The notes under the pieces are model-generated. The model was not told the origin of the DNA. It saw nothing but the letters and a program-made list of their open reading frames with translations, and made no database searches. A program made the translations under genes and the position numbers. A DNA stretch of 64,000 nucleotides from Paraspadella gotoi. Lineage: Eukaryota; Animalia; Chaetognatha. Where the stretch lies: NCBI GenBank assembly GCA_051294375.1, contig CM119266.1, forward strand, positions 10,193,677 through 10,257,676, in the 5' to 3' direction. Positions 6,229-57,885 of the stretch are shown here, in pieces; positions within the stretch are counted from its first letter, which is position 1, and the number at the start of each line of letters is the position of its first letter.

Positions 6229-6268
<40 letters not shown>

Positions 6269-6623: not shown

Positions 6624-6659
<36 letters not shown>

Positions 6660-6677
6660 GAGCGAAACGAGAGAGAG

Positions 6678-6708
<31 letters not shown>

Positions 6709-7322: not shown

Positions 7323-7353
<31 letters not shown>

Positions 7354-7529: not shown

Positions 7530-7735
7530 TAAAAGCATTGAAAATAATAAAATTCTACAGTCTAATGTGAATAACATTGCGGTTTAAGATGAAATATCTT
7601 TTAAACTGAATCATGAGTTATTTACATTTGTTCTCATATCCATATACTTGAGTTACGTTTAAAACCAAGGTTATAATGCTATTCTCTAAAGTATATTCCT
7701 TAACTCCTTATATTCAAATAAGAATGATAGATATT
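7530..7735 (+). repeat. Dispersed ~200-bp repeat, with an inverted copy at 14398-14600
   Basis: ttgagttacgtttaaaaccaaggttataatgctattctcta matches the reverse complement at ~14444-14482, and flanking homology extends both ways. Confidence 0.75.
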
Positions 7736-12884: not shown

Positions 12885-28988
<16,104 letters not shown>

Positions 28989-29580
28989 GACGACGCGACG
29001 AAAAAAAGGCGAAGAGGATTAAGGGATCAGGAAGTCACGTGACGGACGCGTGATCGAAACGGAAGATGCCCCCCCCCCCCACACGATGGTCGGGGTTGGA
29101 GAAGGGATAAATTAGGAATCTTGAAGAATTTTGTGGACATGAGGGAACGCCCAAAATCGAAAAAGCAGAGAGAGATTTGTACCGATAGCGTTAAGGTAGA
29201 AGTTGAAAGCATTTATAAATGTGAAGTTAATTTGCGAATTAACCGAATGCGATGCAGTTTCGGGAGCTGACGCAAAACTTATTCCAAAATTGATATCTGA
29301 AATCGTAAAAACCGACTGAAGTTAAATAAAAACGTAGTATCCGAACAGATTTTACAGTTTAATCAAATAGAATGAAAGTTTTCATTTTGTAAAATAAAAA
29401 AAAAAAGAAAGAAAAACTCGGTTAATTTTTATATCCAAACTGAGTTTTGCCCAGTAGGATTTTTTGGGTTCATTGTAGTCTTTTCATCGAGGGGGAAAAA
29501 AAAGGATAAAAACTTCGCCGAACCGGAAAATGAAAACTGGATGAAAGCAATAAAATTGGTCGAAACTTGGGTTCGTGCCT

Positions 29581-29621
<41 letters not shown>

Positions 29622-29996
29622 TTGTAGTCAGGTTGTCGTCGTCGTCATCGGTGTCGTCTTCCCTTTCACTGTATCCGTCTTTGATATCTTGGCCATATCT
29701 GTCTTCCGATGTCCTCGATGTCTCTCTCTTGGTTATATCATCGTTTGGATATTTTTCGTTGTCGTTTTCGTCGTCGTTGTCGTCGTTGTTTTCGTCGTCG
29801 TCGTCGTCGAGGGGTCGACGATCGATGTATCCACGGCCTCCTCGGCTCCCGCTGTCCTCGTTTCCCCATCTCTCTTTTTTTTTTGAATGAAACTTATCCT
29901 GCGACTTACCTTCGTGTGTCCGTCTGGTCTGAAAAAAATGAGGAATTCCAGGAAGATCCAGGAAAGTAAAGGGGATGAAGGGAAGGGAGGAAGGCA

Positions 29997-30084
<88 letters not shown>

Positions 30085-31284
30085 TTTGATTTGTTGCGTG
30101 AGATAAGGATATTCCTATGAGAATTTATTAGAGAAATATTGTAAAAAACGATGAGGGAGTTTTTTTCCGAATATCAACGGCGGAGGTTAAAGAGGAGAAA
30201 TGAGATCAAAATCGAGGAAGGAAAAAAATATATATTTTGAGATAAAAACAAGAGCCTTCATTCCCGAAAGCGCCCCATTTCAACTTATATTCAGAATTAA
30301 CCTAAATTCAGGATTAAGTTTGTTCTTATGTTTAATAATTAGCTTAATAGGTTAGGGGGTTAAGGTTAACGACAAGGTTATTGATGAGGGATAGCGATTA
30401 GGTTAGATTTAGTTGTGGTTAGAGATTGGTATAAACTTTTGAAAACAGATTATGTAAGGATTAGGATTTTAAAAGGGCGCTCTCAAAAAATAGTGCCAAA
30501 ACAGGATATTAAATCCTGCGTTTGATCAGTCTCCATGTTCTCACCTTCTTTCTCTCTTTGGTTAGCAGCGTAAAACAATTTATTCCAGCAGCGGCTCCTC
30601 TTTCTCCTGTATCTAATTGATTCTTTCTCATTCGAATACTAAAAGTAAGTGAAGAGCGAAATTCCTTTATAAATCTTGTTTTTCCTTATTTAAAGAAGCA
30701 TTATCAACTAACTTTTGGGAGAGTATCAGCTTACAGCCTTTCTCGGTGTTTCATTATTTTCTCCCCACAAAGAGCAAAATTGCTTTTTTTTGTCATTTAG
30801 CCTTTAAGGGGACTGTGTCATTTTTGGGGTCCAGATATGAAAGTGGGCCAATTTTGTGAATGAACTTCCTCTGACATTGATCATCTTTGACAGAAGTCAC
30901 AGATCTCTTATCTTCTTCACAAGCAAAATTTTATATTCAGGCTAAACACTTACACACATTCTAGCATATGGACTGATGCTAAAGCCAGAATGACGAGTAT
31001 GACTCAATTTAAAGCTTAAAAATAACGCTACGTATTTCTCAACTAAAAAAGTTTAGATAAGAGAAATTAATAGCTTACAGGATGAATGCGAATGGGAAAA
31101 TGGCGATTGACTGAGAAGTTTTATCTTTTACGCCTTTGAATAATTATGATTTTATTGATTATATTGATTACCTATTGATTAACAAATCTGGATGCTGTGC
31201 ATCGCGATAGATCAGTATGGTCATCTTGGTCAGTATGTCCTGTTGTCTGTCTGTCCCCTATATCATCAATAAGAGAAGGAAGGT

Positions 31285-31692
31285 CACGCTAGAGAGAGAG
31301 AGAAAGAGAAAGAATGTAAAAGGAGGGCCACGAATAAGGAAGAGAGAAAAAGAGAGAGAGAGAAAGAAAGAGAGAAGTGTGAAAAAGGAGGAACACGATG
31401 AGGAAGGGAGGGGGGGAGAAAGAGAAAAAAATGTAAAAGAGGCCATGAATGAGGATGAAGACAAATGAGAGAGAAAGAGAGAAGAAATGTGAAAAGGAAG
31501 ACACTATGAGGAGGAGGGAAGAGAGAGAGAGAAAAGAAATGAAAATGAGGGCCAAGAATAAAGATGAGAGGAAAAAGAGAGAGAAAGAGAGAAAGAAATG
31601 TAAAGGAGGAACGACGAATGAGCGGAGGGTGGGAGAGAGAGAGAGGAGAGAGAGAGAAAAAAATGTAAAATAGGAACACAATGAGGGAAGGG

Positions 31693-31737
<45 letters not shown>

Positions 31738-31850
31738 TGAAAAGGAGAAACGAATGAGGAAGGTGGGGAGAGAGAGAGAGAAGAGGAGGAGAGAAGAGAA
31801 AGAAATGTGAACAGGAAACACGAATGAGGAGGAGAGAGGAGGGAGAGAGA
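31285..31850 (+). repeat. Degenerate ~60-bp purine-rich minisatellite
   Basis: Unit gagagaaagaaatgtaaaaggaggaacacgaatgagga, repeated about 8 times. Confidence 0.7.
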
Positions 31851-34800
31851 GCTTTTGGAGGAGATTTTATGCGCCGCGGCGGAAGTGGCTCACGTGGAGG
31901 GAGCTGGAACACATCGATTCCAAGGCAGCGCCCCTTAGGAGCGAGCGGACGGCGTGTCATTGCTAGAGTCTTACAGTATAGATCTGAGAGAATACGAGGC
32001 GCACAATATGAATGAGGGAGTCGCGGATCAAGAACCAAGTATTCTACACGTATAATTTATTAGATTATTGTACGATACTCTTTCACTAAAGGAAACAGAT
32101 TAAAAATGATAATTATTTATAACTGAAATGAGTTTATAAATGTCGAGCGAATAGTTTCCATCGAGTCCATCGGGTCCACGCGAGTCCGTCTCGCAATGAA
32201 GAGAGAGAGGAGAGAAGGAGGTAGAGCTGAGAGAGAGAGAGAAGAAAGAAATAGTAAAGTTTGAAACCGTTGTTCGGATCGCCCACGATCATTAACGGTA
32301 ATTAATTAATTATTCAAGTTAAATATTTATTTATGAATTCTTGTATGAATTAAAAAGTCAGATTGATAGTAATGATTAATAATTAATTAGTAATTGTTGA
32401 TAAAGATGATAATTAGTTATCAATAATTTAATATAGAATTAATTAATGTAGTGAAATTTAAGATATAAAAGAAAAAAGAAAGATCCAAATGATGGAAACA
32501 GGTTTTATTGTTTTACATTTAACTAATTCCAATCGGCGATCCATTCGAAAACTTTAGTTCGCTGCTTAATCACACCATTTCTCTTTTTACCTCACACAAA
32601 CTTTAATGTAATTACACACGATACATTGCTTCAAAGCGTGAAGGGGAACTAGATGGAAGGACTGGCATTTTTTTTAATTTTTATGAATTGCTATATTCGA
32701 TGTTCGAATGATATAAGGACTGCGTGGCGACAAGATAATGGGGCGACCGGCAGACCGACACAAAGTGAATTAAGTGAAAGTGTAAAGATACTACTTTTTC
32801 TTACAGATAATGTAAAAAATATGCAAATTAATAATCTAATTTAGCTCAAAGTACAAGTTAACAGTTCATTTCAGCACAATTCATAAAGTTTTTTTTTGGA
32901 TGAAAATTTAGTTAAGAATGTATTGCGCCCCTCCCCCCCATTTGCGGGCGCACGCTGGGGTCACCGTAGGGGCAAGGGGACAGTTTTTTTCAACGTTCGA
33001 CGGCAGAGTTTCGAGTCCCAAGTTTTCTGATTCGCGACGGAACGTCGCGACGACGACGACACACAACGATTAATATGAAAAAAAAGCGAAATATCTGCTA
33101 TTTAACGTTTGAAATTAGGAAAAGTGCAGAGCATGGCCTCATTATTTGTTTTGAAAAACTTTAACTATGCCTATCGCTATGCCTCAAATTCAATAAACAT
33201 TTTAAATACATTGTGTACTTCCTCGTGTCTACGAGAAGTTCAGCAAAATAACATATTTTATATTATGTACCGAGCAGCTCAAACAATGAATTTGTTTGAA
33301 GGTTTTGGCATAAATCTTTATTCGTCGATTGAATAATTTTTTGTGCATGCCAAATTTTGGTAACCGATGCATTTATTAAATATAATATGGTTAGAATTTA
33401 GTATCTATCACTTTTCAATTTAATTTTTTTTTATACGCTTAAGATGTCCAATCAGTTTTAATATCTTTAATATTATAGTTATACCTTAAACAATTAAATA
33501 GTTAAAGATTTCTTTCATTTCAAAAATTGTTACTTTAGCATACCGACAGACCCCTCAGATCGGTGGATGAACCCTCTCTTGGTAGTATCGCCCACTCTCT
33601 TATACTGAAAGAATTCGTTTTTTGTTAATAAACTTAAAACTTTACCAATAGAAAAAGAGCCATTTAAAATATCATCTGATAAAGCATAAAATTTTCCTAA
33701 TAAATTTAAACCCGACATCCTAACATTTTGCGAGTGATCATGGAAATCTCTGTTCCTTGAGACTGCGCAAATATTGACAGTGTGTAACTAGTCCCAAACA
33801 TTATAGCTTTCTAATATCGTTCTGAGATACAAAAAAATTATCATTAATTTGATATTTCATCAACCTCCTTAGAAAACATGTCAATTTGATACTTTTAAAA
33901 TCAGCAAAATGCGCAAGTCCTCCCTGAGATTTTCTTCAGTCTTCGAAGTCATTTACAAGTTTAGCAAACAATGTGGATCTGCTCACGATTAATTAAGCGA
34001 TCAAGCTAAATAAATAAATAAATTAAATTATATAAATAAATACGATAGTAGAATAATTACATGAAAGTAAAAAAATAATTATTAAAAAAAAATCAACTTC
34101 ACCTAGATCACGCGCCGTTGCGTAGGCAACGATAAACCGATATAAACGAGATACCTTATGATGCGTCTCGTGGCGGGAAACTGTCCATGCTTCTTTTCCT
34201 CTCTTATTCTCTCTTCTCGTGCCTCTGCGTTTATTTAAAAAAGAATTGATTGAAGGCTCGAAATTAGCAGCCGCAGTGTGCATGTTATTCATTTTCTATT
34301 TTTCAGAAAGCTGTAACTTATTTCTTCCGTACTTTTTTTTTTTTTCATTAACAATCGCAAAAGAGAATGTTTTCGTGGTGTGTTATAATTTATTTTCTTT
34401 TCTCAATTTTCTTTTTTAGTATCAATAATTTGTCGTCTATGCATTACGGACGATCCTTAGCTTTACAAAAAAATTTGTATTCACTTTTTTTCGTTTTCTG
34501 TGTGATCATTGAATATCCGTGAATAGTTTATAATTTCTAACTGTAAAATCTGAAATGCTTCTACCGTAGTTTCTGATTGATGGATTGGTAAAGAAAAGGG
34601 GAAAACCGGTGACAACAACAAGGAAAAAACCTATTAATGACGCCATAGATACGACGACGATCCACGAAAATGACGACGAAGACGACGGCCGAAATGACGG
34701 ACGAAAATGCGGCGAGAGGAGACAAAACTGACAACGAAGAAGAAACAAAGAGATCGACAATACGCCAACGAAATGACTGTGGACGAAAAAGACGACGGCG

Positions 34801-35011
34801 AAACGAGAGTACGACGCGACGAAAATTTATTGAAGGAAAATGACTAACGATGTCGAAGACGACGACGAAAACGAGACGATATGGACGAATTAAGACGACG
34901 AAGAGACGACGAAGAAGACGACAAAGAAGGCGACAAATGGGTAGCTGGTCAGCCTGTTCTCTTCTCTCTCGCTCTCTATTCCCTCCTCTCTCTCTCTTTC
35001 TCCGACCTCTC

Positions 35012-35539
35012 CGCGTACAGCTGCTGCTCTCTGTAGATATTAATTTATTAATAAAAGTTAAGACGAGCATATTGCAGCTTAGCTTCGAGTTAGAGCATAT
35101 TATCCAAAAAACAAGATATAATACATGCTGAATAAACTTTGTTATTTGTCTCGATGCGATTTAATCTCAACTCACAAATTATCAAGAAAAAGCAATTCTT
35201 ACTCGTTCCAGAGTCTATTCTCTTCTTGAGTTCCTTCTCTTTTGTTTGACATCGAGTAAACTCTGTCCAGCTTTAGATGCGGATCCCAAAACAGATGGCG
35301 CCTTCTTTGCTCACGGAAAACAGCGACAAGGAGATTTTAAACAAAGTGAAATAATAATTAATAAGTTGCTCTCTTCATATGAAAAATGTAACTTTTCTTC
35401 AAGTTGTCCATCCTGACCTTGACTGTGATTTCTTGATGGTTGTGAGCCACGTGACGAATACGTTGATTTGTGCCGCTGGCGAAAGGACTCGTCATTTTGC
35501 TGTCGATGTAATCCCTCTCGCGGTACTGAGAGAGAAAGA

Positions 35540-35594
<55 letters not shown>

Positions 35595-36155
35595 AATCAA
35601 GTATGACTTCCGTTTCGTGTCTTGTTTCTTGTTTCTTCCGAACCTGAAGCATCATGTAAGTGCAAAACTCGTCCCAGCTGACAGTCCCGTCGCAAGATGT
35701 GTCCACTGAAATAAAGTTGATTTTAGATTACTTGGTTTTGTATCTGTCTGTCTGTCTGTCTTTTTTCTATTTCCTTCCATTTCTTTATAATTATTTCTCT
35801 ACTTTATTTTTTTCGTTTTTTCGTTTTTTTTCTATGTCTTTATGTCTTTCTGTCTTTCTGTCTTTCTTTCTTTCTTTCCATCACCTTTATTGAAGAGCTT
35901 CTCGATCTGATCGTCGAATCCCCTCGTCCCCAGCATCTTCCCCACCGCGTCCTTGAAATCTCTCATGGACATGTTCCCCGGGGATCGTTTCGGTCTCCGC
36001 GCGGTCACTTCGCGAAGAAGGGCACGTGCGGAGCGCGCTGGGTGAGTGGAAGAGCGCGGAACGTGCTGCGCGGAAATAAAATAAGGATAAATGATACAAT
36101 AATAAATAATGAATAAATAATGTATAAATAAAAAATTTTCGCTAATACGTAGAAC

Positions 36156-36199
<44 letters not shown>

Positions 36200-36200
36200 T

Positions 36201-36249
<49 letters not shown>

Positions 36250-37006
36250 GCCTGTTGAAACATCCTCATGAGCTGCTGCAAGTGCCTGATGGAGATGTAG
36301 TCTCGACCGATTTCCGGGAGAAGGCAGCGCGAATCTCCCACACGCGCGACGCCCAGACGCACGTGGATATCGTCGTCGTCTTCGTCGTCGATGGTCGTCA
36401 TGACGACGCGACGAAAAAAAGGCGAAGAGGATTAAGGGATCAGGAAGTCACGTGACGGACGCGTGATCGAAACGGAAGATCGCCCCCCCCCCACACGATG
36501 GTCGGGGTTGGAGAAGGGATAAATTAGGAATCTTGAAGAATTTTGTGGACATGAGGGAACGCCCAAAATCGAAAAAGCAGAGAGAGATTTGTACCGATAG
36601 CGTTAAGGTAGAAGTTGAAAGCATTTATAAATGTGAAGTTAAAGTTTGCGTAATTAAAGAAGCCGTAATCCGACGAATGCAGTTTCGGGAGCTGACGCAA
36701 AACGTAATTCCAAAATTGAGTATCTGCAATCGTAAAAACCGACTGAAGTTAAATAAAAACGTAGTATCCGAACAGATTTTACAGTTTAATCAAATGAATG
36801 AAAGTTTTCATTTTGTAAATAAAAAAAAAAGAAAGAAAACTCGGGTTAATTTTTATATCCAAACTGAGTTTTGCCCAGTAGGATTTTTTTGGGTTCATTG
36901 TAGTCTTTTCATCGAGGGGGGAAAAAAAAGGATAAAAACTTCGGCGAACCGGAAAATGAAAACTGGATGAAAGCAATAAAATTGGTCGAAACTTGGGTTC
37001 GTGCCT

Positions 37007-37045
<39 letters not shown>

Positions 37046-37398
37046 TCGGTGTCGTCTTCCCTTTCACTGTATCCGTCTTTGATATCTTGGCCTTCGATAT
37101 CTTCTTCCGATGTCCTCGATGTCTCTCTCTTGGTTATATCATCGTTTGGATATTTTTCGTTGTCGTTTTCGTCGTCGTTGTCGTCGTTGTTTTCGTCGTC
37201 GTCGTCGTCGAGGTCGAGATCGATGTATCCACGGCTCTCGGCTCCGCTGTCCTCGTTTCCCCATCTCTCTTTTTTTTTTTGAATGAACTTATCCTGCGAC
37301 TTACCTTCGTGTGTCCGTCTGGTCTGAAAAAATGAGGATTCCAGGAAGATCCAGGAAAGTAAAGGGGATGAAGGGAGAGGAGGAAGGCAAGGGGAGAG

Positions 37399-37492
<94 letters not shown>

Positions 37493-38219
37493 ATTTGTTG
37501 CGTGAGATAAGGATATTGCCTATGAGAATTTATTAGAGAAATATTGTAAAAAACGATGAGGGGAGTTTTTTTCCGAATATCAACGGCGGAGGTTAAAGAG
37601 GAGAAATGAGATCAAAATCGAGGAAGAGAAAAAAATATATATTTTGAGATAAAAACAAGAGCCTTCATTCCCGAAAGCGCCCCATTTCAACTTATATTCA
37701 GAATTAACCTAAATTCAGGATTAAGTTTGTTCTTATGTTTAATAATTAGCTTAATAGGTTAGGGGGTTAAGGTTAACGACAAGGTTATTGATGAGGGATA
37801 GCGATTAGGTTAGATTTAGTTAATGGTTAGAGATTGGTATAAACTTTTGAAAACAGATTATGTAAGGATTAGGATTTTAAATAGGGCGCTCTCAAAAAAT
37901 AGTGCCAAAACAAGGATATTAAATCCTGCGTTTGATCAGTCTCCATGTTCTCACCTTCTTTCTCTCTTTGGTTAGCAGCGTAAAACAATTTATTCCAGCA
38001 GCCGCTCCTCTTTCTCCTGTATCTAATTGATTCTTTCTCATTCGAATACTAAAAGTAAGTGAAGAGCGAAATTCCCTTTATAAATCTTAGTTTTTCCTTA
38101 TTTAAAGAAGCATTATCACTACTTTTGGGGAGAGTATCAGCTTACAGCCTTTCTCGGGATTTCATTATTTTCTCCCCACAAAGAGCAAAATTGCTTTTTT
38201 TTGTCATTTAGCCTTTAAG
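35012..38219 (+). repeat. 3.2-kb direct duplication, copy 2
   Basis: Matches 27622-30808. Confidence 0.92.
35203..36401 (-). pseudogene. Second copy of exons 1-5 of the EF-hand/WD40 gene (partial duplicate or alternative haplotype)
   Basis: MTTIDDEDDDDIHVRLGVARVGDSRCLLPEIGRDYISIRHLQQLMRMFQQ (36401-36252), then the HVPRSS..KLFNK, VDTSCDGTVSWDEFCTYMMLQ and YRERDYIDSK.. exons. Near-identical to 27811-28988, and no downstream exons follow this copy. Confidence 0.65.
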
Positions 38220-38650: not shown

Positions 38651-39325
38651 TCATTTAAACTGGCAGATAAAGGGTCTTTCTTTTTGGCAATTTTGATCTT
38701 GCCATTTTTTCTCCCCATTTACGACGATGCACTTCCGACCTCCACCATTAGGCTCAGTCTCGTTCCAACGAAACAATTTTATCTTTCGAATTGAAGCGAT
38801 CTCATCGGACTGAGGGTTAGGAGCGAAGACCCAAAGCCAATCTGGATGGAATATGGAAAGGTTAAATCTCTCTCTCTCTCTCTCTCTCTGACTTCATTGA
38901 TTCGTGCTCACATTCATATAAGCATTCATTATGTACACTTGAATGCGCAGCACTAGGAAATACATACACTGATTTAAAATCGTTGTAACCGTACCATCGT
39001 CGGCAGTATTCCGATACCCGGCGATCCAAACAAATTCGAAACGAGGCTCAAAGAATTTCTCGAATCCCTCAATGTCGTCCTCAGGGATCGCGAGATGCCC
39101 ATTCTGGCGAGCGCACTCCATGAGCGCCTCCGTCCAGTTCACGTTTCGAGATGCCCACTCGTAGCGAAATCTGGGGCGACCCTCGGCGCCGCAGGATGAC
39201 GCAGGATGACGCAGCGTCGCCGCTGTCGATGGGGGATGTAAACTCTGGAGGCAGAATGGCTCGCCGAGGGTGTCGCGGACGATGAAGACGACGACGAGGG
39301 GAATTAGGAGATCCGAACAACCCAT
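38651..39325 (-). CDS. Secreted C-type lectin (CTLD, EPN motif), 2 exons, ~182 aa
   Basis: Exons 39325-38968 and 38841-38651 join in phase. Signal peptide; NWTEALMECARQNGHLAIPED; VWIAG; WNETEPNGGGRKCIVVNGEKKWQDQNCQKERPFICQFK*. Confidence 0.9.
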
Positions 39326-39812
39326 TACAGAAAATAAGCGGTTAAATTTGATAATAATAGCTATTAATATTATAAATAAACTTCAGGCGGATAGAAAGTT
39401 GCCAATCGATTATTCGGACGGAAAATTGGACTCGTGGTCTTTTAGGTTAGGCGTTGAAACCTAAATCTGATATACGTTGTCATGGAAATTGTATAATATA
39501 TATACAATATATATACGATATATATATATATTATATATATATATATCGATCCCCGTCCCTTTCGTCGACGAAACAAGAGTTATTTGAGTTAGAATTTATG
39601 TTTGCTCTTCCGGTAACTTTACCTAGAGTAAAAAGAGGGCAAAAAATTACTAAATACTGCACAACAGGAAAATACTAAAAAAGGTGAAGAGACTTTAATT
39701 ATTGTTATTTGTTAGTGACAGAACCGTTCAATGTAAGCAGTCCCTGAGCTTCGGATCAGGCTGTAACACCGTGTTACAGGCGGGTTAAGCGTCCCGTCCC
39801 TCTTAACTGCTA

Positions 39813-39885
39813 GGCGGCCACCGGGCTAGAACCCCGGACCTTTGGGTTGGGAGGCGAATGACTTGCCTCCGGCACCAATGACCGC
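39813..39885 (-). ncRNA. tRNA-derived (tRNA-Gly-like) Pol III cassette inside the LTR; not a canonical tRNA
   Basis: GCGGTCA/TGGCCGC acceptor stem, CCGGG-GTTCTAG-CCCGG T-arm, A-box-like TGGTGCCGGAGG, and TCGCCTCCCA resembling the tRNA-Gly(CCC) anticodon region. The anticodon stem does not pair. Confidence 0.65.
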
Positions 39886-40228
39886 TGATGAACAGTTGGT
39901 GGATTTTAGTCCACCATACATCCCCCCCTCCCATAGGGAGAAGTCTGTTGCGTCTCTTAAGTGAATTGTTGTTGGTGGAAAGTGCGTCACCAAGTTGAGG
40001 CATGTTGCCTGATGTGTTGTTGGCGGAAAGTGCATCACCAGGTTGAGGCCTGTTGCCTGAAAGTGTTGTTGCTGTTGTGTTAAGAAGTCGGGCTCACCAA
40101 TGAAGATACTTTAATTATTTTTATGTGTTAGTGACAGAACCATTCAATGTAAGCAGTCCCTGAGCTTCGGATCAGGCTGTAACACCGTGTTACAGGCGGG
40201 TTAAGGGCCCCGTCCCTCGTAACTGTTA

Positions 40229-40301
40229 GGCGGCCACCGGGCTAGAACCCCGGACCTTTGGGTTGGGAGGCGAATGACTTGCCTCCGGCACCAATGACCG
40301 C
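40229..40301 (-). ncRNA. tRNA-derived cassette inside the second LTR
   Basis: Identical to 39813-39885. Confidence 0.65.
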
Positions 40302-40415
40302 TGATGAACGGTTGGTGGATTTTAGTCCACCATAAAGGAATAGATAGTCTTAGGAACAGAAATCGCTACAAGATCACTTAATATTAGGATAAAGAAGCGA
40401 GTGTACATAACACAT

Positions 40416-41159
40416 TAAGCAAATTACATGTCTGAGACAAAAACAGTGAGGCTTACTATAAAAAGTATGAAAAAAAAATGATATATTGTGGACGCAATAT
40501 CGAGTTTGTGAGTAGCGTGGTCTTAGAAAAACCAAAACCAAAACCAATCTGCAAAGATGAATGAATTTTATTTATTTTTTGCACAATCTCAATAGAATAT
40601 AGAATATTAGTCATTCCTTAATTTATCTTGGAAACATTTACTGAAGTTACTTTAATTACATTAAACTATCGACAGCTTTTCTTGTCCGAGGCCGTAAGTG
40701 TTAAGTTTAATTTACTCTTTTCACTCTTTATTTTTTAGCCATCGTTATTAGTTCAAATTTAATTTTTTTTTTAATTACATGCCAATTTCTCTCNNNNNNN
40801 NNNTTACATGTCTGAGACAAAAACAGTGAGGCTTACTATAAAAAGTATGAAAAAAAAATGATATATCGAGTTTGTGAGTAGCGTGGTCTTAGAAAAACCA
40901 AAACCAAAACCAATCTGCAAAGATGAATGAATTTTATTTATTTTTTGCACAATCTCAATAGAATATAGAATATTAGTCATTCCTTAATTTATCTTGGAAA
41001 CATTTACTGAAGTTACTTTAATTACATTAAACTATCGACAGCTTTTCTTGTCCGAGGCCGTAAGTGTTAAGTTTAATTTACTCTTTTCACTCTTTATTTT
41101 TTAGCCATCGTTATTAGTTCAAATTTAATTTTTTTTTTAATTACATGCCAATTTCTCTC
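40416..41159 (+). repeat. Tandem ~360-bp duplication across a 10-N gap (likely contig overlap artefact)
   Basis: About 40423-40793 is repeated at 40804-41159. Confidence 0.85.
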
Positions 41160-41160
41160 A

Positions 41161-41568
41161 CCCTTGCTGTTTCGTTCCAGGATTTCGTCAAATTTTTCTT
41201 CGTCGTCTTCGGGAATGGCTAAATGACCGCCACACTCAACACATACTTTAAGCGTCTCCAGCCATGTTACGTTTCGACTCATCCACTCGTAGCGCACTAG
41301 CCTTTTCCCAACGGTTCGGACTCTTGTTTCGGACTCAACCGGGACACAACGGCCCCGAAGTAGGGTGCAGCTCTGTCGTACGGCACGGTGCGGCCGGTGC
41401 CAGGAGGCCAAGTTCTCCCGCAGAGCACGCAGACGCCTTCTCCGCCGTCGTTGGCAGTGTATGAAACCTTTGAAAATAGAATGGCTCGCCGAGGGTGTTT
41501 CCAATTAAAAAAAGGGTGACAGTGTTGAGGACTAAGATGAAAGTGAAGACGAGTTGCGGACCACTCAT
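41161..41568 (-). pseudogene. C-type lectin paralog, frameshifted and lacking its C-terminal exon
   Basis: Signal peptide MSGPQLVFTFILVLNTVTLFLIGNTLGEPF, a frameshift near 41340, then RYEWMSRNVTWLETLKVCVECGGHLAIPEDDEEKF and a donor at ~41160. No WIAG/EPN exon is visible downstream (an assembly gap is adjacent). Confidence 0.7.
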
Positions 41569-42434
41569 AGTCGGCTTCTCGATAACCTGATTTTTTAAAA
41601 AGTCTTAAACTGCAAGAGTGATTCTTTCAAAATTTCTCGGAAATTATGTGGATGGCACCATATATATAATCCACAATTAGTCCGAATCGTCGTACGTATG
41701 TAAAGGCTGAGTTTAGGTTGAACTAAAGCAAAATAACAGTGTTTCCTGAAGAAAAAAAAACTAAACTTTTCAGTTTTTTCCAAATTTCAGTGAACATTTA
41801 TACAATTACTTGTTACACTATTTTTTTTTAATATTTTATAATATAAGGTCAGTTTCGGTTGAGCCTTCGAAAAATAATCTTTGATCCACTTTGAAAAGCA
41901 ACAACATCTTCTCTCCTAACGCGATGTCAGTTTTGGGAAGATAATTTTTCTCGGTTGAAAATAAATAGTTATCGATCCGCCATTGTTTGCCCTTCAGATT
42001 TTGGCAGGGGGCTTGGAAATTTGAATCCAGCGCTTATCTCTCTGTATGTCATTATTTACATGTATATCTGTTTGTCTGTCTGATTGAATTAATAAAAAAT
42101 AATTGAACGGATGAATAAATAAGTAAATTCAGCACAGATTGATTTATTGGGGGGATTTTACTTTCTGCATTTTAAGCCGTATATCTTAAAACATTGTTAA
42201 AAGAACTTATTACGTATTTTTCAAGTTTTCCTCTCTCTCTAACTAAAATCAATCGAGAAATTGTTCATCTTTCTCAAAATTAATCGACCGTTCATTTTGT
42301 CCCTCAAAATTCGAGTTTCCATTTTCTTTAAGACGGTGCATCAACGACAAACAAAATTCATTATAATTCGATAAAAGGTGAGAAAAAATATTTCAATGCC
42401 GAGTTTGGGAGAAACTTGACGAGTAATCGACGAC

Positions 42435-43263
42435 TCATTCCAACTGACAAACAAAATGCATCGCCGAATGACAAGTTCCGTCATGCCATTTCTTGTTTTC
42501 TTCGACTAAGAGGCCATCCGGTTGGCCAATTTCCCAGTTAAACTTGATAATTTTTCGATCGGAACGAACTTCGTCTTTAGTCGTCCAGTGATGATAATCG
42601 GTGACCCAAAACAAATCTGAAAGATAAGTTAAAAATATCAGAACACAAATTTAAACATTGCAGAGATGAGGGGACGGAAATGCGGGATATAATTTTCATA
42701 ACTTTCACTGATTCTAACCCAGAAAATATCTAACCTGATCTAAGAGGTTTGCCCGCGATCCAAACGCCTGAAAATTCTCTATCCAAATTTTTTTAAAAAA
42801 TTCTTCTTCGTCGTCTTCGGGGATCGCCAGCCGACCTTCGATCTCTTTGCAAACGTTAAGCGCCTTCAGCCAGGTGGCCTCTTGATCCATCCTCTCTACC
42901 CTTTTCTCTTTGCAATAACCTCGGCACTACCCCTTCTTCTCCAGCTCCCTCTCCCCCTTCCGTTCGGAATAAATTGACAGATGTCGCTGTCGAAGAAGAT
43001 GGAAGTTCCGTTGTAGGGTTTGGTGCTGCCGTAGGGTGCTGTGCCCCTGAAGGACGCTGTGCTGTCGTGAAGCTTGTAGGCTCTGGAGGACGAGGTAAGG
43101 GATCCAGTGCACCCGATGGGCACGCTGATGTCTTCAGGTGCGGTTCTGACGCCGTGGGTGGTGGATGGAAGCTTTGAAAGCGAAAAGGCTCGCAGAGAGT
43201 GGCCCCGATGAGGAGGAACGAGGTGAAGACAAAGAAGATGAAGACGGTTTGACCACTAACCAT
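42435..43263 (-). CDS. C-type lectin with Pro/Thr-rich stalk and QPD motif, 2 exons, frameshifted (sequencing error or pseudogene)
   Basis: Exon 43263-42735: signal peptide, mucin-like stalk, ATWLKALNVCKEIEGRLAIPEDDEEE, SGVWIAGK. Exon 42616-42435: FNWEIGQPDGLLVEENKKWHDGTCHSAMHFVCQLE*. Confidence 0.75.
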
Positions 43264-44198: not shown

Positions 44199-47100
44199 TC
44201 ACTCGCTAATCCCATCGAAACCCCCCGCCCCGTCCGAGTCCGATCCCTCGGCCAACAGTTCCGTCGTCTCCGCAACAACCGAGTCGTCATCTTCCTCCTC
44301 CTCCTCTTCCTCCCCTTCCTCGATCCTCCCCAACGTCCTCGCACCTTCCTCCCTTTCCTCCTCCATCTCTTCCTCTTCCTCCACTCTACCTTCCCCCACC
44401 TTCTCCCCTTCCAACGCAGCCGCCTCCGCCTCCTCCCGCTCCGGATCCTCCACCACCATCGACAGCGCCCTCGGATGATGCGGCGGCGGCGGCGGCGTCG
44501 TCTCTTGGAACGCCTCATTGACGTAGACGTCGACGCCGAAGGGATCCTCGTCGCGGAACGGATCGTCGGAAAAGCGCGGATAATCCTCGTCGTCGTCGTC
44601 GTCGTCGTCAGCTTCGAAGGAATCCTCCAACTCGTCTCCGAGAAAGGCGCCTCTTAAAAGCCTTCGATCTCCCCGCTCGGGTTCCCAATCGTCGATCATT
44701 GAATCCTCACTTAACATCGGCGTCCGTTCGCCCACCTTCTCCTCTTCCTCTTCCTCCTCTTCCTCCCCCTCGGCGGCGAACTTGACCTTCGTCGTCCGCT
44801 CGGCGACGAAGATGTCGGGAAAATCCTCGAGATCCTTGGAGTCGCGAAACTCGCGCGACCAACGGAAGATGGGGGCGAGGAATCGACGGCCGCGTGCCGT
44901 GTCGGGTTTGATCGGGGGTGGGGCGGGTGAAGAGGCGAATGGGGCGACGGGGTTGTCGTCGTTTTCGTCGCTTGAGTTGTTGTTGTTGTTGTTTATATTG
45001 TTAGGAAAATGGACGTTGTCGTCGTTGATTTTGTCGTTGTTGTTGTCGTCGTCCATATCTCGAGACCCATTTCCTGCTTCCTCTTCCTGGACCCTCTCCT
45101 CTTCCTTCTCCGCCTCGATGCCCCCGCTCCGAGACGGCCTTCTCTCGGCGTCGATCCTCAGCGTGCGCCGCACCGCCGTGTGGATGCTGATCTTCCGAAT
45201 CTCCGCCTCCGCCTCCCGCGACGCCCGACCCCGCGCCACGACCGACTTGACGAGGGCGATGACGACGCCGACGAGGACGACGACAATGACGCAGAGAACG
45301 ACGCCGAGGATAACCTGACCCGGCCCTACCGAGGTCAAGAAGCTCTCCTCCACGGCGGCTGAGGCGGCGGCCGCGGCGTAGTCGGCCTCGGGATCGCTCA
45401 AGACGACGGCGGCGGCCAAATCCGCGCGAAAATTTCGATAGGCGTAGTTTTCCGGCGCCGGTGGGAGAGGAATCGGCGCCGGCGCCGCGATGCAACGACC
45501 CTTAACGACGCCGCCGACGGATCTGGCGCCGTATGGGCTTCGATCGTCGTAGAGCGCCGACTTTAGCGGCGTCAATCGAGTTCGTCGCCAGCGCAGATCG
45601 AGGGCGACGTTGGAGAGGCAGCCGGTGAAGTTGAAGAAGCCTCGAAGCGTTGGATGAACGAGCGGAAGGCCACCGACGAGCACCACGCTTAAATCCTTTA
45701 AAATCCTTAAATTCCCCCGCGTCTCTCTCTCGCTCTCGTCCACCTCCAACGACACTTCTCTCGCCTTCTTCGTCAACCGCAACTGGTGATGCTCTCCGTC
45801 CAAGACATCGACGATCGATTTGAGTCGAACTCCTTCTCGTCCCGACTGCACCTCCACCCAGAGTTCCGTCCACTCGTTGAGGTAAACGTGAAGAAAGTCG
45901 GTGTGAGTTCGTCTCGTGGAGGAGGATTCCGCGTAGAGGAGGGATTGCCGCTCGCCGGCGGAAGAGCTGTCCACGCGGAGAATCACCTCGAGCGTCTCCA
46001 ACGGGTCGTCAACTCCTTGTCTTTTTTTTCTTATCGACGAAGCCTTCGGCACGCTCTGCACCACGAAGCTCTTCCCATCAAAAGCGGCGCCGTTATCCTC
46101 CGCGCATGTCGGCCCCGCGAATCCCGTCTTTCCACAGTCGCAGCTGAAGGCCGACCATTTCTCCCGACAAACCCCACCGTTCGCGCACGGAGCGCCGTCG
46201 CAAGGCGCCAGGCAGCCGGGCTTGGCGCCGCTGCCGCCGTCCCGAGCCGTATTTTCCAAGGGAATTTGAAAGTCGTCGAATTTAAGGCCAGAGAGGCAAC
46301 CGATCAGAGGAGGGAGCGTCGAGTTGGTCGCGGATCCGAGAGAGACGCGCACGCGGTCTGCGGGATCCGAAACGTCCAATTTTGGCATCACCGTCGGCGT
46401 CGAATCGCAGTTGACGAACGGATCCGCCGAAAACGTCATAATCTTGTCCCGCGCCAAAACCAGACGACGCTCGTCATCGTTGAGACGAAGCGTCATTTCC
46501 GGTCGACCACGCCTTCGACGGAGGCGGACGCGTTGGAGTCGTCCGTCGTTGAGAGGGCGCGAAGATTCGAGTCGAATCTCAATCGGGCAGTTGGACGAAT
46601 CGACGAGGGCGTTGAGGGTGACGAAGAGCGAATCCCTCTCGAAGTGGAACTGGATAAAGTTGTCGAATTTGTCGCGGGCGTGGAGCAACAGCGCAGCGGC
46701 GGAGAAGCTGCGGAAGGCGAAGGTGACGGAGGCGTCAAAAGGATCGAAAGGGGCGTGGCCGGAGGCGGAGTTGAAGTATTCGACGGCGGGTTGGATGTCT
46801 TTCTTGGAGGGAGTGAGAGTCATCGCGTCATCGTTTAAATTGATTTCGCAATTTCGACCAAAGATTGAAAATTCGTCGAAACACTCGCACCTTGTGAGAA
46901 AGGGCGAAGAAGAGCAAAGTGGTTTAGCGAAAACATATACTTTTACAATTAATGGATAACAAATATGTCAAATGAAGGTGATTTTTGACTTAAATCTCAA
47001 TTGAATTTCACTACCGTTGCCAATGTTTAATAATAACATGCATCGGTAAGTTTAGAGTCTTTGAGATTGTCCATGATATTGTCTCCATCACCGTTTCTCT

Positions 47101-50100
47101 CTGATATATTTTAAAATTAATTTTACAATTAATATAATTTAGAACAAAAAACAACCTTTGACATTCAAATATTGTTCTCACCTGTAATCACCCCACAATT
47201 CCACGCACTTCCCGTTCCGACAGGGCGAGCTCCGACAACCGGCGACGGAGCCCAACATCAAGTCGCCCTTCACCACCGTCCTCGAGTCTCTCGTCAAATT
47301 CCTCAGCGACGCCGAGACACCGTCGACTACCAACGCCTCGACGCTTCCGGCGAATCCGCCCACGATCGCTCGCCCGCCGACAATCCACTCCACGCCCTCG
47401 CTGTCGACCAGTTCCGAGGCGAGGTTAACTCGAAAGAGGGCGTCGCCGCCTCGGAATCGCGCGTCCACGAATTGCCAGTCGCCGTCGTTGAGGATTCGGT
47501 GAGATCGGACGAGGGTTTTGGTGGAAGGGAGTAGGAAGGAGACGAAAAGGCCCTTCTCCACTGAGATCTTAAAATAAAAGTTTAAAAAATATATATATAA
47601 ACAAGGAAACAGAAAAAAATAGAAGTAACCAAGCAAAACAAATATGAGAGAAAACTAAAAAACAATTGCCAATTCTGACAAAAAAACAAAAAAATCTAAT
47701 CAATTCACAAAAACAAAACAATTAACAATAAACATAAACATTAAACAATCTCGACGAAACAAACCTTCAAAACTCTTTCTCCTCGTTCGCTCCTTAATTC
47801 CATCAAATCTCCATCCGGGGAGAAAGTTCTAAACTTAAACGATATTGACCGACTCCCCCTCCGCCCGTCCATTGCAACCGGAATCGCCACCCTCGTTTCC
47901 GGCGATCTCAGCGTCACCCCTTGGTCCGCCTCCATCGTTCGGTCGCCCCAACACCTCAGCGGTCCCAGGGTGACCTTTGCCCTCGATTCTACGCCTTCGC
48001 TCCGCTCGAAAGTCATCCCTAAGACGGGCAGTTTGATGTCATCAAGTGAATCCAGAGTGCCTTCGTCCGAGGTCCAGGTCACGTGATAGGGATCGCCCCT
48101 TTCCCCGTCGTCAGCGTCGCAGTTGCAGCGGACGCGAATATTGGCGCATCTCTCCAGCGAATCGAAACAGCCGCAGGCGCCTTCTGTCGGCGAACCCATC
48201 GAGACGATCCTTCGATCGTCGAGACCCGTAAACCAAGTGCGTTCGCCGAGTAGCAACGGAGCGTCGCTGCACTCGTAAAAGAGATGCTGCTGACAACGAG
48301 ATGATGCATCAACGAGCCTCTCCAGCATCTCGCGACTCATGTCCGCATAGACGACGTCGACGGAAGCCGTCTTGTCTCCGTAGGAGGCCTTTCTGACCCA
48401 CAGACCCGGCGGCACGTTGTTGGGGACGACGGTGACACCGATAGGCTCGTCGCCGCTGTCTCCATCTCCTTCCATCTTGCACGTGACCTGCACCGGGGCG
48501 GCGCCGTCGTCGCCGTCCACGTCGATCAAGTAAGGACCCGAAGTCACGTGACCTCTGGCCCTGAGTTCCTGGCACGACCTTGCGAGTTTGGAGAATTGAC
48601 AGAAGCGGCCGGCGTGGGCGGCGCCGTCGCAAAGGCACTCCGCCCGGCGCCAGTCGGACACGCAACGCCCGCCCTGGAGGCATTTATGGCCAAAGGTGTG
48701 ACAGTGGTCGACGAGCGGGCATCCGTCGAGAGTTGCGCCATGGTTGAAGTGGCTCGTCGAGGTGGGTCGCGTCGTAGTTGTTCGTGGATCGATGTTGACG
48801 CCGTTGACGACGACGTTAGCGACACAGCCGACGAAGCCGCGGCCTGGGCGCCGGTGCTGATCGTTGCCGACGAAGATCGAAGATGTCGGCGGCGTTATTT
48901 TGGCGAAATCGGCGTCGTCGGGAGGAAAACGAACTTCCCTGACGGCGCCGTCGATGCGGAGTCGAAGAGGACGCCTGAGGGTCAGGGAGACGTTGTGCCA
49001 CGCCCCGTCATTAATGGCGACGGCGACGATGTCGTCGCTGATGACGGCGTCGTCCTCGTCATTCTCTTCCTTCCTAGTTCTCAACAACATCCTTGCGTCA
49101 CCCCTGTCGACGATCAACTCGACCATCATCGAAGCCGACACGTTCGCCGCCACGAGAATTCCCGATCCCCAGAAAGTTCGAAAAGCGAGTGAGACGGCGC
49201 CGCCAGATTTACTTCCGGCGTCGACGAGCAGTTCCAGCGCAGCCCTTCCGTCTCTGAAGCTGAGAGGCGTCGACTCGATCGTCCGGCACGCCCCTTCCGG
49301 TTCTCGACAAAAACCGGCTTCGCAGTAACTCGGCGTCTTTCTTCTCGCGGCGCCGTCGTCAAGCGCTTCCGCCACGTTGACGTCGTTGAAAAAGACGTCG
49401 CGAAGGCAACCAACGAAGTTAAGCGCCACGACGCCGCCGATCTCCGCCACGCCGGCGTCCCCGGCGCCGCCGCCGAATCGGACGACGGGATCGAAATGAA
49501 AATGACGCCGCCGTCCGTCTAGTCCGTGCAGGGATCGAAATCCGTCCAATTCTATCTCAAGATGCGCGTGACGGTGGCGCAGCACGACGGAGTGCCACGT
49601 GTCGTCGTCCAGACGACGCCGGGCGCCAAACGACGCCGAAACGAAGACACCGTCGCCAAAGTCAGCGTCTACGCGAAGAACGCCGGCGTGGAGAAGGACC
49701 GCCAAGTGGTTGTGGGCGGGAATGGCGCCGCCAGCGAGGAAGAGGAGCGAAGAGGAGACGCGGGTTTTAAAGTCGAATCGAACGCGGGTCACGCTGGCGT
49801 GGGATTTGGCGTCTGCGGCTGCGGCGTCGGAATCGCCACCCCTGGCGGTCAACTCGACGTGATCGAATCCCGACAGCGTCATCGGCGGCGAATTAAATTC
49901 ACAGAATTGACCGCCTTTAAATTTAGCCTCGAAACAGTCGCAGGTCACGCTATCATAGCGGTTGACGCAGAGGCCGCCGCCGTCGCCACCGCCGCAGAGG
50001 TTGCTGTCTCCGCAGCCGTCGCTGCAGGCTGCGCCGACGCGAGCGCCGCCTCTGACGACGCGGACCTTCATAGCGGAAAAGAATCTGACGCAGCCGAGAA

Positions 50101-50991
50101 TGTGATTGTTTTTTAGTTTTCTGTTGATCTCGTTTTCGCTTTGATCGTTGTTTCTAGCTCCGTCTTTGTTTTCTTTTTCTGGAATCTTTGTTTTTCTTTC
50201 GTTTTCACCTTCTTTGTTTTTGTTTTTTCTTTTTTCTTTTAATATCACTTCTTTTTTCCCATTTTCTTCTCCCTCTTTCCCTATCACAACTTTCACTCTT
50301 CCTCCGCTCCTCCTCAACTGCGCCACAGCCTGGCCGCTCAGCGTCGCCGCGTCCTCAGGGAGACGGTCCAACTTGACGCCGACGAAGCGACGTCGCGGAT
50401 CCAGCGTCAGCGTCACTCGGTGCCACTCGTCGTCGGAGAGTCCTTTTCCGAGACGGAGACGGCGCTGGGTGGCGGTGGCGGCGTCTATGGTCACCAGGAG
50501 ACGCCCTCGACGGAGAGAGAAGCCGACGAGCGCCGGCGCCGTGGAAGGGGCGGGACCGCCCTGACCCGTGTCCGGAAATACGTGGAAAATGGCGCCGGTA
50601 GCGTCCCAAGTGCGGAAAGAAAAATCGAAGGTTGTCGGCGACGTATGAGGGCGTGGCCGATTCTATTTGAGGTTTTAATTAATACATATATGCCACCTTT
50701 AAGATTATGTAATCAATGTTAATTAAAAGACTTAATTTTGTTGTTAATGAAGTGTCAATAACCATCAAAAACACTACGACCACAATAACTACATAAAAAA
50801 CTTACAAGAAATAAAAAAAAGCATATATTATCATAAAATTACTTTCTCCGCCCAGTCACCTGAACCAAAACGACGTACGCGTTTGATCTGGACGTCAACG
50901 TGACGTAATCTTCATTGGCGTTGGTGGCGTTAATGACGTGGAACAGCGTCGCCACCGTCAACGCCGATAAAATGAGTCGCAACGCCTCCAT
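44199..50991 (-). CDS. Axotactin/contactin-associated-protein-like neurexin-superfamily membrane protein (LamG/EGF/fibrinogen-like, TM), 4 exons, ~2035 aa
   Basis: Exons 50991-50860 (signal peptide MEALRLILSALTVATLFHVINA), 50662-47765, 47567-47182 and 46890-44199 join in frame (6108 nt). Repeated LamG motifs (FSFRT..LSDDEWHRV, FDFKT..LDDDTWHSV..FVGCL), EGF repeats, a fibrinogen-like block (SCQELRARGHVTSGPYLIDVDG..CQQHLFYEC..CNCDA), TM segment VILGVVLCVIVVVLVGVVIALV, and an acidic tail. Confidence 0.92.
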
Positions 50992-54292: not shown

Positions 54293-55797
54293 TCAACCGA
54301 TGATGAGCGTGTTCGGCATGTGATCCCCCAGGAACATCAGCAGCGCGTGCGTCGCTCCCGGACAGTTGGTCAGCTCCAGCTCCTCAAGCTGAATCAGCTG
54401 CACCAGCTGCGACAGGCCCTCAGTCGTCAGCATGCCGCAGCCGGCGATGGACAGCACTCGCAACGACGGCATTCCCAGCAGGTGCTGGATGGAGATGTCG
54501 TGAATTTGGGTGCACCATCTGGAAAAGAAAGACGATGTAACTGGTTAAAAAAAAACTTTTATCAAAATTACATATAATAAATTAGAAATATTCAACAATA
54601 GTTAAAACTGCAGTGAAAAATGATTTTTTTAGAAAAAAAAACAACAACAAAAAATACGTTTCCATACATTTAATATAATATAAATATTATTCGTATATTA
54701 TCAAACAAAAAAAAACAATAAAAAACAGCAGGAGATAATAGTTTAGTATAAAAAAAGACATAATTTTCACTCTGGACTGCCTTCAAAAATGATTCGTCCA
54801 TAAGAAACGAAATATTGGCAAATAAAAATAAAAAATACACTTGTAAATCATACTACGAATTGCTTTATACTAAATAAACTAAGTATCTTTTAAACAAATA
54901 AGTAAACAAAGAAAGAGTGAGCCAATTACAAATAAGCAAGTATTAAACAAACGGTAAATATAAAATAGTTAAATAGGGAACAAAGAAAAAAAAATATTAA
55001 CAGATTAAAAAAATTAACTAACCAACAAATAAGTTGCACTCGCCTGAGAAAAAGTCTTTGGATGGAAGTCATGGCGGCGATGTGTCCGATGCCGACGTCC
55101 GTCACGTGGACGCATCGATCGAGCACCAATTCTTGGAGGGACGCGCCCAAGTCGCACGCCAAGTACTCCAGGGAGGCGTCTGCGGAGATNNNNNNNNNNN
55201 NNNNNNNNNNNNNNNNNNNNNNNNNNNNNNNNNNNNNNNNNNNNNNNNNNNNNNNNNNNNNNNNNNNNNNNNNNNNNNNNNNNNNNNNNNNNNNNNNNNN
55301 NNNNNNNNNNNNNNNNNNNNNNNNNNNNNNNNNNNNNNNNNNNNNNNNNNNNNNNNNNNNNNNNNNNNNNNNNNNNNNNNNNNNNNNNNNNNNNNNNNNN
55401 NNNNNNNNNNNNNNNNNNNNNNNNNNNNNNNNNNNNNNATAAATTGGGTTGACGTGAATACAATTTAAAAAGGGAATTTTTGAGGTGGTAGATATGACCA
55501 AACAAGCCGTCCGACAATTAGCGGCCCCTAAACAAAAGGACTTGGTTTCACTTTTAAAAAAAGGGTCATGGGTTTATCCCAACGTCTTGTCGACGCTCGC
55601 GACTGTAGCAGGTCCAAAGTCCAGAAACCTGCGCGCTACGGAATCATTTTTCACAAAATCAAGAATTAAGGAAAAGTTTCAGAGATTTAAAGAGAGAGAG
55701 AAAGAAAGAAAGACAGTTAAAATAAAGAGGAAAAGATAACAGAAGATTTAATCATTTGAAGAAATATATAGAAAGAGATAAAGAGTCTAAGAGAGAG

Positions 55798-55853
<56 letters not shown>

Positions 55854-57290: not shown

Positions 57291-57358
<68 letters not shown>

Positions 57359-57633
57359 CGCTTTTCTAACCCACGACCCGAAGGTGGCTGAGAGGCTTTC
57401 CTTCCTTCCCCTCCATCCACGCCATCTGAGGAGGTGGAGCGGGCGGGGTTCCTCGGACCCCGAAACTGACCTGTGACCCTGGGACACCAGGAGAGGTCGA
57501 GCGTCTGCAGGAGACGAAGATGCTCGGCGATGACCTCGACGCCGTCGTCCGTGATCTTGCTGGCAGGCCGGAGATGGTTTGGAGGTGCGCCGGTAGGTTG
57601 GATGAGGGCTGCAGAACTGGTTGGAGGCGAGGG
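54293..57633 (-). CDS. FBXL16: F-box/LRR-repeat protein 16, last three coding exons (5' part not found in window)
   Basis: Exons ~57633-57471 ([30 protein letters not shown]), 55179-55044 ([46 protein letters not shown]) and 54518-54293 ([42 protein letters not shown]). Closely resembles the FBXL16 C-terminus, and phases are consistent. Confidence 0.9.
55960..56095 (+). mobile_element. Degenerate tRNA-derived CORE-SINE fragment
   Basis: B-box GGTTCGAATCC (~56013), followed by GTGGCCTTCGGGCAAGTCACTT, which resembles the CORE motif GACCTTGGGCAAGTCACTT. Confidence 0.55.
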
Positions 57634-57659
57634 CTAGATTGGGTGGGGGTGGGTTGTTT

Positions 57660-57885
57660 GTTTATTATTAATCATTTATTTATTTATTTAATTTATTTAT
57701 GTTATTATTTAGTTTATTTATTTTATTTATTTATCACTATTTTATTTATTTATTTATTTATATTTATTATTTATTTATTTATTTATTTATTTATTCTATT
57801 TTTTTCTATGTTATTTTTATTTATTTATTTATTTATTTATTCTATTTATTTATTTATTTATTTATTTATTCTATTGTATTTATTT

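Follow-up and report, generated by a model that had tools for sequence, protein, structure and literature searches.

A 650-nt LTR element on the minus strand of the 64-kb stretch analysed here (the window) belongs to a high-copy, interspersed, and sharp-ended family rich in solo LTRs, and a type-P5 twister fold lies directly behind the tRNA-like head of each of its LTRs on the sense strand. The presence of a twister-derived fold in the LTRs is a well-supported prediction from descriptor matches and pairings, and self-cleavage is predicted from it. This fold was overlooked in the first reading of this DNA, and it likely changes the RNA life cycle of the element. As a tentative reading, to which we give somewhat less than an even chance, we propose a Pol III-driven LTR retrozyme: both LTRs would self-cleave, and the resulting one-unit RNA, likely circularised, would be copied by a CsRn1-type helper.

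Read along the minus strand, the element runs through AAGG, LTR, one spacer base, primer-binding site (PBS), core, polypurine tract (PPT), TG, LTR, and AAGG. Repeat comparison and loose contig ends place the 5′ LTR at 40101..40334 and the 3′ LTR at 39685..39918. Both are 234 nt long with TA...CA ends, differ by 9 substitutions (96.2% identity), and enclose a 180-nt noncoding core (39921-40100, minus strand), in agreement with the preliminary description, which had reported two direct repeats around a 180-bp core. Its placement of the flanking signals also held, as did everything else it stated about the sequence. Specifically, the CA end of the 5′ LTR at 40101 is followed by the spacer at 40100 and by a PBS of the tRNA-Trp type at 40099-40087 (minus strand), which matches the 3′ end of tRNA-Trp at 12 of 13 positions when checked against the A. 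mellifera tRNA-Trp given in Fig. S2 of PMC10886601. The PPT, made of 12 purines (39932-39921, minus strand), abuts the TG (39920-39919) before the 3′ LTR, and the 4-bp target-site duplication AAGG (no strand) flanks the element at 39681-39684 and 40335-40338, with a chance of matching from flank composition of 0.007 at one register and 0.02 over three. A 7-bp hairpin (39897..39916 and 40313-40332, minus strand) lies within U3, the 33 nt that precede the tRNA head. The noncoding core holds 2.2 copies of a 48-nt tandem unit (39967..40071, no strand; TRF), and contigs that go back or skip at this unit suggest that its number varies. The element contains no open reading frame of at least 130 aa from stop to stop, and no third LTR copy was found in the 64-kb window.

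Family membership was assessed with contigs from four public runs (three studies) placed on positions 39570-40450 (881 nt). Matching contigs numbered 10,651, 17,501, 3,046, and 1,066 per run, and their summed depth, which is not a copy number and which leaves out element cores of less than 85% likeness, reached 1e5-3e6 on the element versus 10-220 on the flanks. Relative to flank depth, the values in three runs were 4,400-8,800 for the core and 22,000-69,000 for the LTR; division by 31, the worst overlap of short contigs, still left 140-280 and 700-2,200, respectively. The U3, tRNA head, and twister regions were equally deep, at 5- to 12-fold above the core, which indicates solo LTRs rather than free SINEs starting at the head. 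The copies and solo LTRs that the earlier reading called for are thus present. That reading would have been overturned by two SINEs adjacent by chance or by a single-copy element, and the depth of the core, with its PBS and PPT, thousands of times above that of the flanks, speaks against both, as does a U3 whose depth equals that of the head. Each repeat begins with a SINE-like head and ends A-rich, and there are gap-associated duplications nearby, features that would fit chance adjacency or an assembly artefact. However, contigs of two runs span both flank junctions, and those of a third also span the left one, so that such an origin is extremely improbable. A 23-nt motif of the LTR had 0 exact matches in metagenome contigs.

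The ends of the family are sharp. Loose contig ends into unrelated flanks accumulated at 39685 in all four runs (62, 77, 50, and 30 contigs) and at 40334-40336 in the three DNA runs (164, 194, and 137 contigs), with none at 39920 among the best 24 of 1,077 rows. At least 51-59% of the right-end junctions are unable to carry CA, and the commonest four letters in the loose ends of both sides read A/C-T-A-T, starting at 40335. These two observations indicate that integrated ends are mostly TA...CA and that TG occurs at the inner PPT junction only (39919..39920, minus strand), which departs from the TG..CA ends expected beforehand. The absence of 2 nt from the outer LTR had likewise been noticed; it is true of the sequence, but the loose ends make it a family trait rather than a peculiarity of this copy. 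The inner TG would correspond to the dinucleotide that an integrase trims from the outer end.

The tRNA-like heads (39813..39885 in the 3′ LTR and 40229..40301 in the 5′ LTR, both minus strand) are identical 73-nt cassettes, read from 39885 to 39813 and from 40301 to 40229, with none of the inter-LTR differences falling inside. The segments had been described as having a paired acceptor stem and T-arm, and in tRNA register we indeed counted 7/7 acceptor and 4/5 T-stem pairs, with poor D and anticodon arms. ARAGORN made no tRNA call on the cassette at its default setting and Rfam gave no tRNA match on the element at E<=10, but at 88% of its threshold ARAGORN called a tRNA-Gly(CCC) pseudogene here, a level at which any call arose in only 10/2000 dinucleotide shuffles of the LTR. 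Taken together, these results mark the cassette as nonrandom yet strongly decayed. The B-box GGTTC is intact at 39833-39829. The A-box-like motif lies at 39877-39866, and box A reads TGGTG, which fits only a looser A-box pattern. It departs from the TRGCY..YGG box A described for most Helenus families. Three further candidates were set aside: additional relaxed ARAGORN calls over the twister region (Tyr and Arg at 80%), a level at which the window has 30 calls; an Rfam match to the snoRNA sR38 on the plus strand, antisense to the head (39850-39896 and 40266-40341), which at 18-19 bits against a gathering score of 50 was taken as chance; and a subthreshold Rfam match to P26, also taken as chance.

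The decay of the head bears on whether it drives transcription, since a retrozyme with an inert head, transcribed by Pol II or by read-through from a neighbour and with its RNA defined by the ribozymes alone, would equally show a cassette below the ARAGORN and Rfam thresholds with an atypical A box. Read-through has been proposed for retrozymes (PMC7761336). We nevertheless consider an inert head improbable, given the intact B-box, the lack of inter-LTR differences in the cassette, and a single variant between 39818 and 39880 among the best 40 of 61 variant rows. The proposed Pol III-driven retrozyme would instead start transcription near 40301, in the head of the 5′ LTR, a promoter role predicted from the cassette.

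The twister folds span 39736..39811 in the 3′ LTR and 40152..40227 in the 5′ LTR (both minus strand) and were identified by descriptor match and pairings. In the 3′ LTR, the predicted general-base G is 39798 and the predicted cut falls between U39787 and A39786, with T2 (GC) at 39781-39780, P3 at 39779-39761, P4 formed by 39760-39756 with 39747-39743, and L4 at 39755-39748. The corresponding predictions for the 5′ LTR are G 40214 and a cut between U40203 and A40202. All pairs form in the 3′ LTR (T1 3/3, T2 2/2, P4 5/5, P3 8/8, and P5 7/7), those of T1, T2, and P4 being all Watson-Crick, and the 5′ LTR has one P5 mismatch. The conserved core bases of twisters (UAA, GC, U..AAGC, and GA) are present, as judged from Table 1 of PMC8501958 and the Rfam consensus line. 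A descriptor that was written from the element table (Table 1) of PMC8501958 after the motif had been seen had no match on either strand of the 64 kb other than the sense strand of the two LTRs, and it matched 0/100,000 shuffled LTR strands. As a check of this descriptor, pattern matches were collected from viral and metagenome contigs, and 10 descriptor motifs in 9 loci were run through Rfam: 8 were called Twister-P5, 7 of them above the gathering score, and the two without an Rfam call have short linkers and a 3-bp P4. In those contigs, two type-P5 twisters in the same orientation were seen twice, 240 nt apart on one viral contig (L124; 148-207 and 388-451) and ~2.9 kb apart on another (L131 and L132).

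Rfam itself found no twister on the element at E<=10, and the gathering score of RF02684 was missed. We attribute this to the model, which has an 8-bp P1 and no P3, and the same point marks how the fold differs. P1 is here a single G-U pair on a 6-nt linker, compared with linkers of 17-29 nt in 15 natural P5 twisters, a range that is partly a result of the search pattern, which demanded at least 10 nt. P1 has been reported to be dispensable in vitro (PMC5408937). P2 has a 3-nt strand with 2 Watson-Crick pairs and a C-A mismatch or bulge; a 3-nt strand also occurs in 7/15 natural P5 twisters, P2 is 4 bp in the structures, and altered P2 length may disturb the twister active site (PMC5408937). 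In the minimum-energy fold, computed with pseudoknots ignored, the T1 partner strand is placed in a competing hairpin and the pair probability of P2 is 0 (-28.1 kcal/mol, versus -21.8 kcal/mol for the nested twister without pseudoknots). A covariance model built from the 15 natural P5 examples ranked the LTRs second and third in the window, below a GC-rich chance match, with scores of 20.0 and 18.2 bits (rough E values of 0.007 and 0.018) that refer to another register. This alternative register (second UAA at 39776-39774) was rejected, as it keeps P1 but breaks P2, T1, and T2. A hammerhead starting from the plus-strand CTGATGA was also discarded by eye, having no GAAA partner and lying on the wrong strand, and Rfam found no hammerhead match in the element.

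These features raise the alternative of an ordinary Helenus TRIM in which the twister is a dead relic. A tRNA-headed SINE already containing part of an RTE-type twister would have given rise to its LTR. A linear Pol III RNA would then run into the flank, and the LTR downstream of the head would serve as the repeat. The minimal P1, imperfect P2, competing hairpin, and missing Rfam call all favour this explanation, as does the fact that an RNA from 40301 to the four-T run at 39682 already holds a 201-nt repeat, with no need for a ribozyme. A possible source is suggested by the likeness of P3 to the Perere-3 twister. By eye, the P3 arms are identical to those of Schistosoma Sma-1-680 at 7/9 and 7/9 positions, with one pair changed on both sides, L4 is identical at 7/9, and the third T1 pair is G-C here versus C-G in the Schistosoma rows. 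This likeness, with its two-sided changes, suggests that the fold arose from an RTE-type twister through permutation. A dead relic, however, sits poorly with pseudoknot pairs and core bases that are intact in both LTRs, with the two-sided change in T1, and with the P5 order, which requires a rearrangement relative to the RTE type. Variants within the fold point the same way: among the best 40 of 61 variant rows, the common ones avoid the core and lie in or beside the P3 loop, linker, junction, and P5 end, the one core change being a minor T1 variant at 3-14% of depth. On balance, we regard a dead relic as rather unlikely, although it is an alternative to be taken seriously. A search of viral contigs with the T1-variant pattern gave 120 loci, of which 5 motif rows passed a loose descriptor and none was a relative; one of these 5 rows has a P4 of at least 4 bp and none has a P3.

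An active twister in each LTR would lend the proposed retrozyme the following cycle. Pol III would start at the tRNA head of the 5′ LTR (40301) and meet no four-T run inside the element, the first lying in the flank at 39682; 352/2000 shuffles also had none, so that this absence is not significant. The twister is predicted to cut after 99 nt, removing the head, and a second cut would follow in the 3′ LTR. Their product would be a 416-nt RNA (39787..40202, minus strand) with 5′-OH and cyclic-phosphate ends and no terminal repeat, consisting in order of the ribozyme 3′ half, U5, PBS, core, PPT, U3, tRNA head, and ribozyme 5′ half. By analogy with plant retrozymes, a host ligase would close this monomer to a circle, whose junction would read exactly like the LTR. 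Host tRNA-Trp would then anneal to the PBS and the helper reverse transcriptase would run round the circle, with the PPT priming the second strand and no strand transfer across an R region needed. Finally, the helper integrase would trim 2 nt per end, with loss of TG, and insert the DNA with a 4-bp duplication. Integration is the step partly borne out by observation; the trimming is deduced. The data themselves show the anatomy, copy abundance, sharp ends, and fold.

The same coordinates accommodate a slow ribozyme acting as a 3′-end maker, in which the 5′ LTR stays uncut in many transcripts and the 3′ LTR is cut. The resulting linear RNA would have a terminal repeat of 99 nt, which begins with the head at 40301 and extends up to the first cut, and normal LTR strand transfer on this repeat would dispense with a circle. 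Partial cleavage would suit the weak P2 and the competing hairpin, and a 3′-end maker would suit an element without an internal Pol III terminator. Plant retrozymes, in contrast, cut at both sites and circularise, and the two ribozymes of the element share the same core, so that selective cutting of one LTR needs a kinetic explanation. We judge this alternative unlikely.

The priming signals point to the putative helper of the proposed retrozyme. CsRn1-clade elements have a tRNA-Trp PBS of the form TGGTGA(G/C)CCCG(T/A) and a 4-bp target-site duplication, and ATA or AAA can replace ACA at their ends, according to PMC2582038. The PBS of the element, its mismatch included, fits this signature, as does its 4-bp duplication. 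CsRn1, PwRn1, and AgCR, as described in PMC2582038, thus share with the element the PBS signature, tRNA-Trp, the 4-bp duplication, and tolerance of non-CA ends; they are autonomous and 4-6 kb long, in contrast to the noncoding 650 nt found here. From these sequence features, we infer that the helper would be a CsRn1-clade Gypsy element, which narrows the probable Gypsy helper of the earlier reading. None of the 22 window ORFs scanned is a helper ORF, and the sections of PMC12471100 covered here hold nothing on tRNA-Trp priming.

By the working definition of Kojima 2024 (PMC10886601), assignment of the element to the Helenus-type TRIMs is supported. The same assignment had been made in the preliminary description and stands as regards the multicopy status, the tRNA-like LTR cassette, the 4-bp duplication, and the Gypsy-type priming, but it was incomplete in that the twister fold had been missed. 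Like the Helenus elements (TRIMp3) of PMC10886601, the element is shorter than 1 kb and noncoding, with two LTRs carrying a tRNA-like part, a PBS, and a PPT, and it shares solo LTRs and the B-box GGTTC with them and the 4-bp duplication with the animal families described there. The nearest are Helenus-2_SyJa and Helenus-2_SyUm, which are likewise tRNA-Trp primed, and TA...CA ends also occur in five wasp Helenus families (PMC10886601). In most of the published Helenus LTRs examined, a T run follows a tRNA part situated in the 3′ half (PMC10886601), whereas in the element the head begins 33 nt into the LTR and the twister fold comes next. Three LTR motifs and the exact PBS start of the element gave 0 matches in the published Helenus consensus file (PMC10886601). 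The portions of the main text of PMC10886601 consulted name no ribozyme in Helenus and present Pol III transcription as unproven for the published families too.

In DataS1 of PMC10886601, Helenus-2_SyJa-LTR and Helenus-2_SyUm-LTR show by eye what looks like a type III hammerhead on the 3′ side of the tRNA part, with a GUC site, a stem I hairpin, CUGAUGA, stem II, GAAA, and complementary loops. If these apparent hammerheads in two tRNA-Trp-primed wasp Helenus families are genuine, TRIMs that depend on CsRn1 elements would have acquired ribozymes on at least two occasions. The broader proposal would then be an animal LTR retrozyme that combines an active P1-less twister with a Pol III promoter and priming signals of the retroviral type within 650 nt, and that multiplies by way of a 416-nt circle, with the wasp hammerheads as a separate recruitment; this we put forward as possible, with distinct reservation.

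Comparison with plant LTR retrozymes (PMC4918200) reveals a similar plan. As described there, these are noncoding, with a self-cleaving ribozyme per LTR (predicted in our case), a PBS, a PPT, and a 4-bp duplication, and they have a Gypsy-type helper (inferred in our case), solo LTRs, and a cleaved monomer without R (again a prediction for the element). Their ribozyme is a type III hammerhead instead of a twister fold, their primer tRNA-Met instead of tRNA-Trp, and their LTRs are 300-400 nt long instead of 234 nt; unlike them, the element has a tRNA-like head and an animal host. Its ribozyme not being a hammerhead, the element falls outside the LTR retrozymes by definition. In plants, the steps from cleavage through circularisation to reverse transcription are on record with hammerheads, and copying beyond one unit gives solo-LTR, monomer, or multimer cDNA (PMC4918200). 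Animal retrozymes have been described as lacking LTR, PBS, and PPT (PMC7761336 and PMC4918200), and further reviews on retrozymes are available (PMC6765202 and bioRxiv 10.64898/2026.07.22.740005). In the SINE-like repeats of Schistosoma described in PMC6765202, a Pol III-type promoter lies directly upstream of the ribozyme as in the element, an arrangement that leaves the promoter as the 3′-terminal part of the monomer after cleavage. These repeats differ from the element in being tandem and non-LTR, with a hammerhead and no PBS or PPT (PMC6765202).

On the ribozyme side, the Perere-3 (RTE) T-variants of Schistosoma mansoni (PMC8501958), together with type P5 (RF02684), have the core bases, T1, T2, P3, and P4 in common with the element. 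Its P3 and L4 are close to the Schistosoma rows, and it has little or no P1, as in the T-variants (PMC8501958). It differs in its P5 rather than P1 order, the closure by a 7-bp P5, a short and imperfect P2, and its location in an LTR instead of at the 5′ end of the non-LTR element Perere-3. Among the open-access papers found, judged mostly by title and abstract start, none places a twister in an LTR element or reports a ribozyme in Helenus, and within them a ribozyme in each LTR that would trim the transcript to one unit occurred otherwise only in plant elements, with a different ribozyme. Should the retrozyme reading be true, it would join the Pol III-promoter TRIMs (Helenus and Cassandra), the plant LTR retrozymes, and the twister ribozymes, whose one worked-out role in the literature covered is the trimming of the 5′ end of RTE elements. 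It would offer an answer to the question of where a Pol III-driven LTR element gets RNA ends of fixed position, and it would lead one to expect, in an animal, an abundant small circular RNA dependent on a Gypsy helper. As a natural P5-type twister that lacks P1 and is missed by Rfam, the fold would also mean that others may hide in repeat libraries. If the ribozyme is dead, the element is one more Helenus family in an invertebrate, of modest interest.

The element lies between members of a small gene family, with a start codon at 39325 located 360 nt downstream of it. Three related small genes on the minus strand, labelled by eye as C-type-lectin-like (38651-39325, 41094-41626, and 42435-43263, the middle one frameshifted), match each other in tblastn, with no Pfam match on their exon pieces, and it is the first of these that the element precedes. 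An axotactin-like gene (44199-50662, minus strand) is fast-evolving and has very long exons with open frames of 973 and 922 aa. Its best matches, at 31-33% identity, are from a tick, molluscs, a nemertean, and an annelid, and a quick tree (26 rows, proteins aligned over 450 residues or fewer being left out) placed it on a long branch outside the arthropod, mollusc, and ambulacrarian clades; the host is read from this as a bilaterian invertebrate. WDR49/CFAP337-like exons (~23400-35700) and exons resembling F-box/LRR protein 16 (~54900-57700, the latter by eye) also lie on the minus strand. Besides the element, the window holds a 370-nt duplication around a 10-N gap (40424-40793 and 40804-41159), likely an assembly artefact, a 3.2-kb direct duplication of 95% identity (27618-30808 and 35008-38219), and a 1-kb inverted pair of 81% identity (9124-10020 and 10302-11264).
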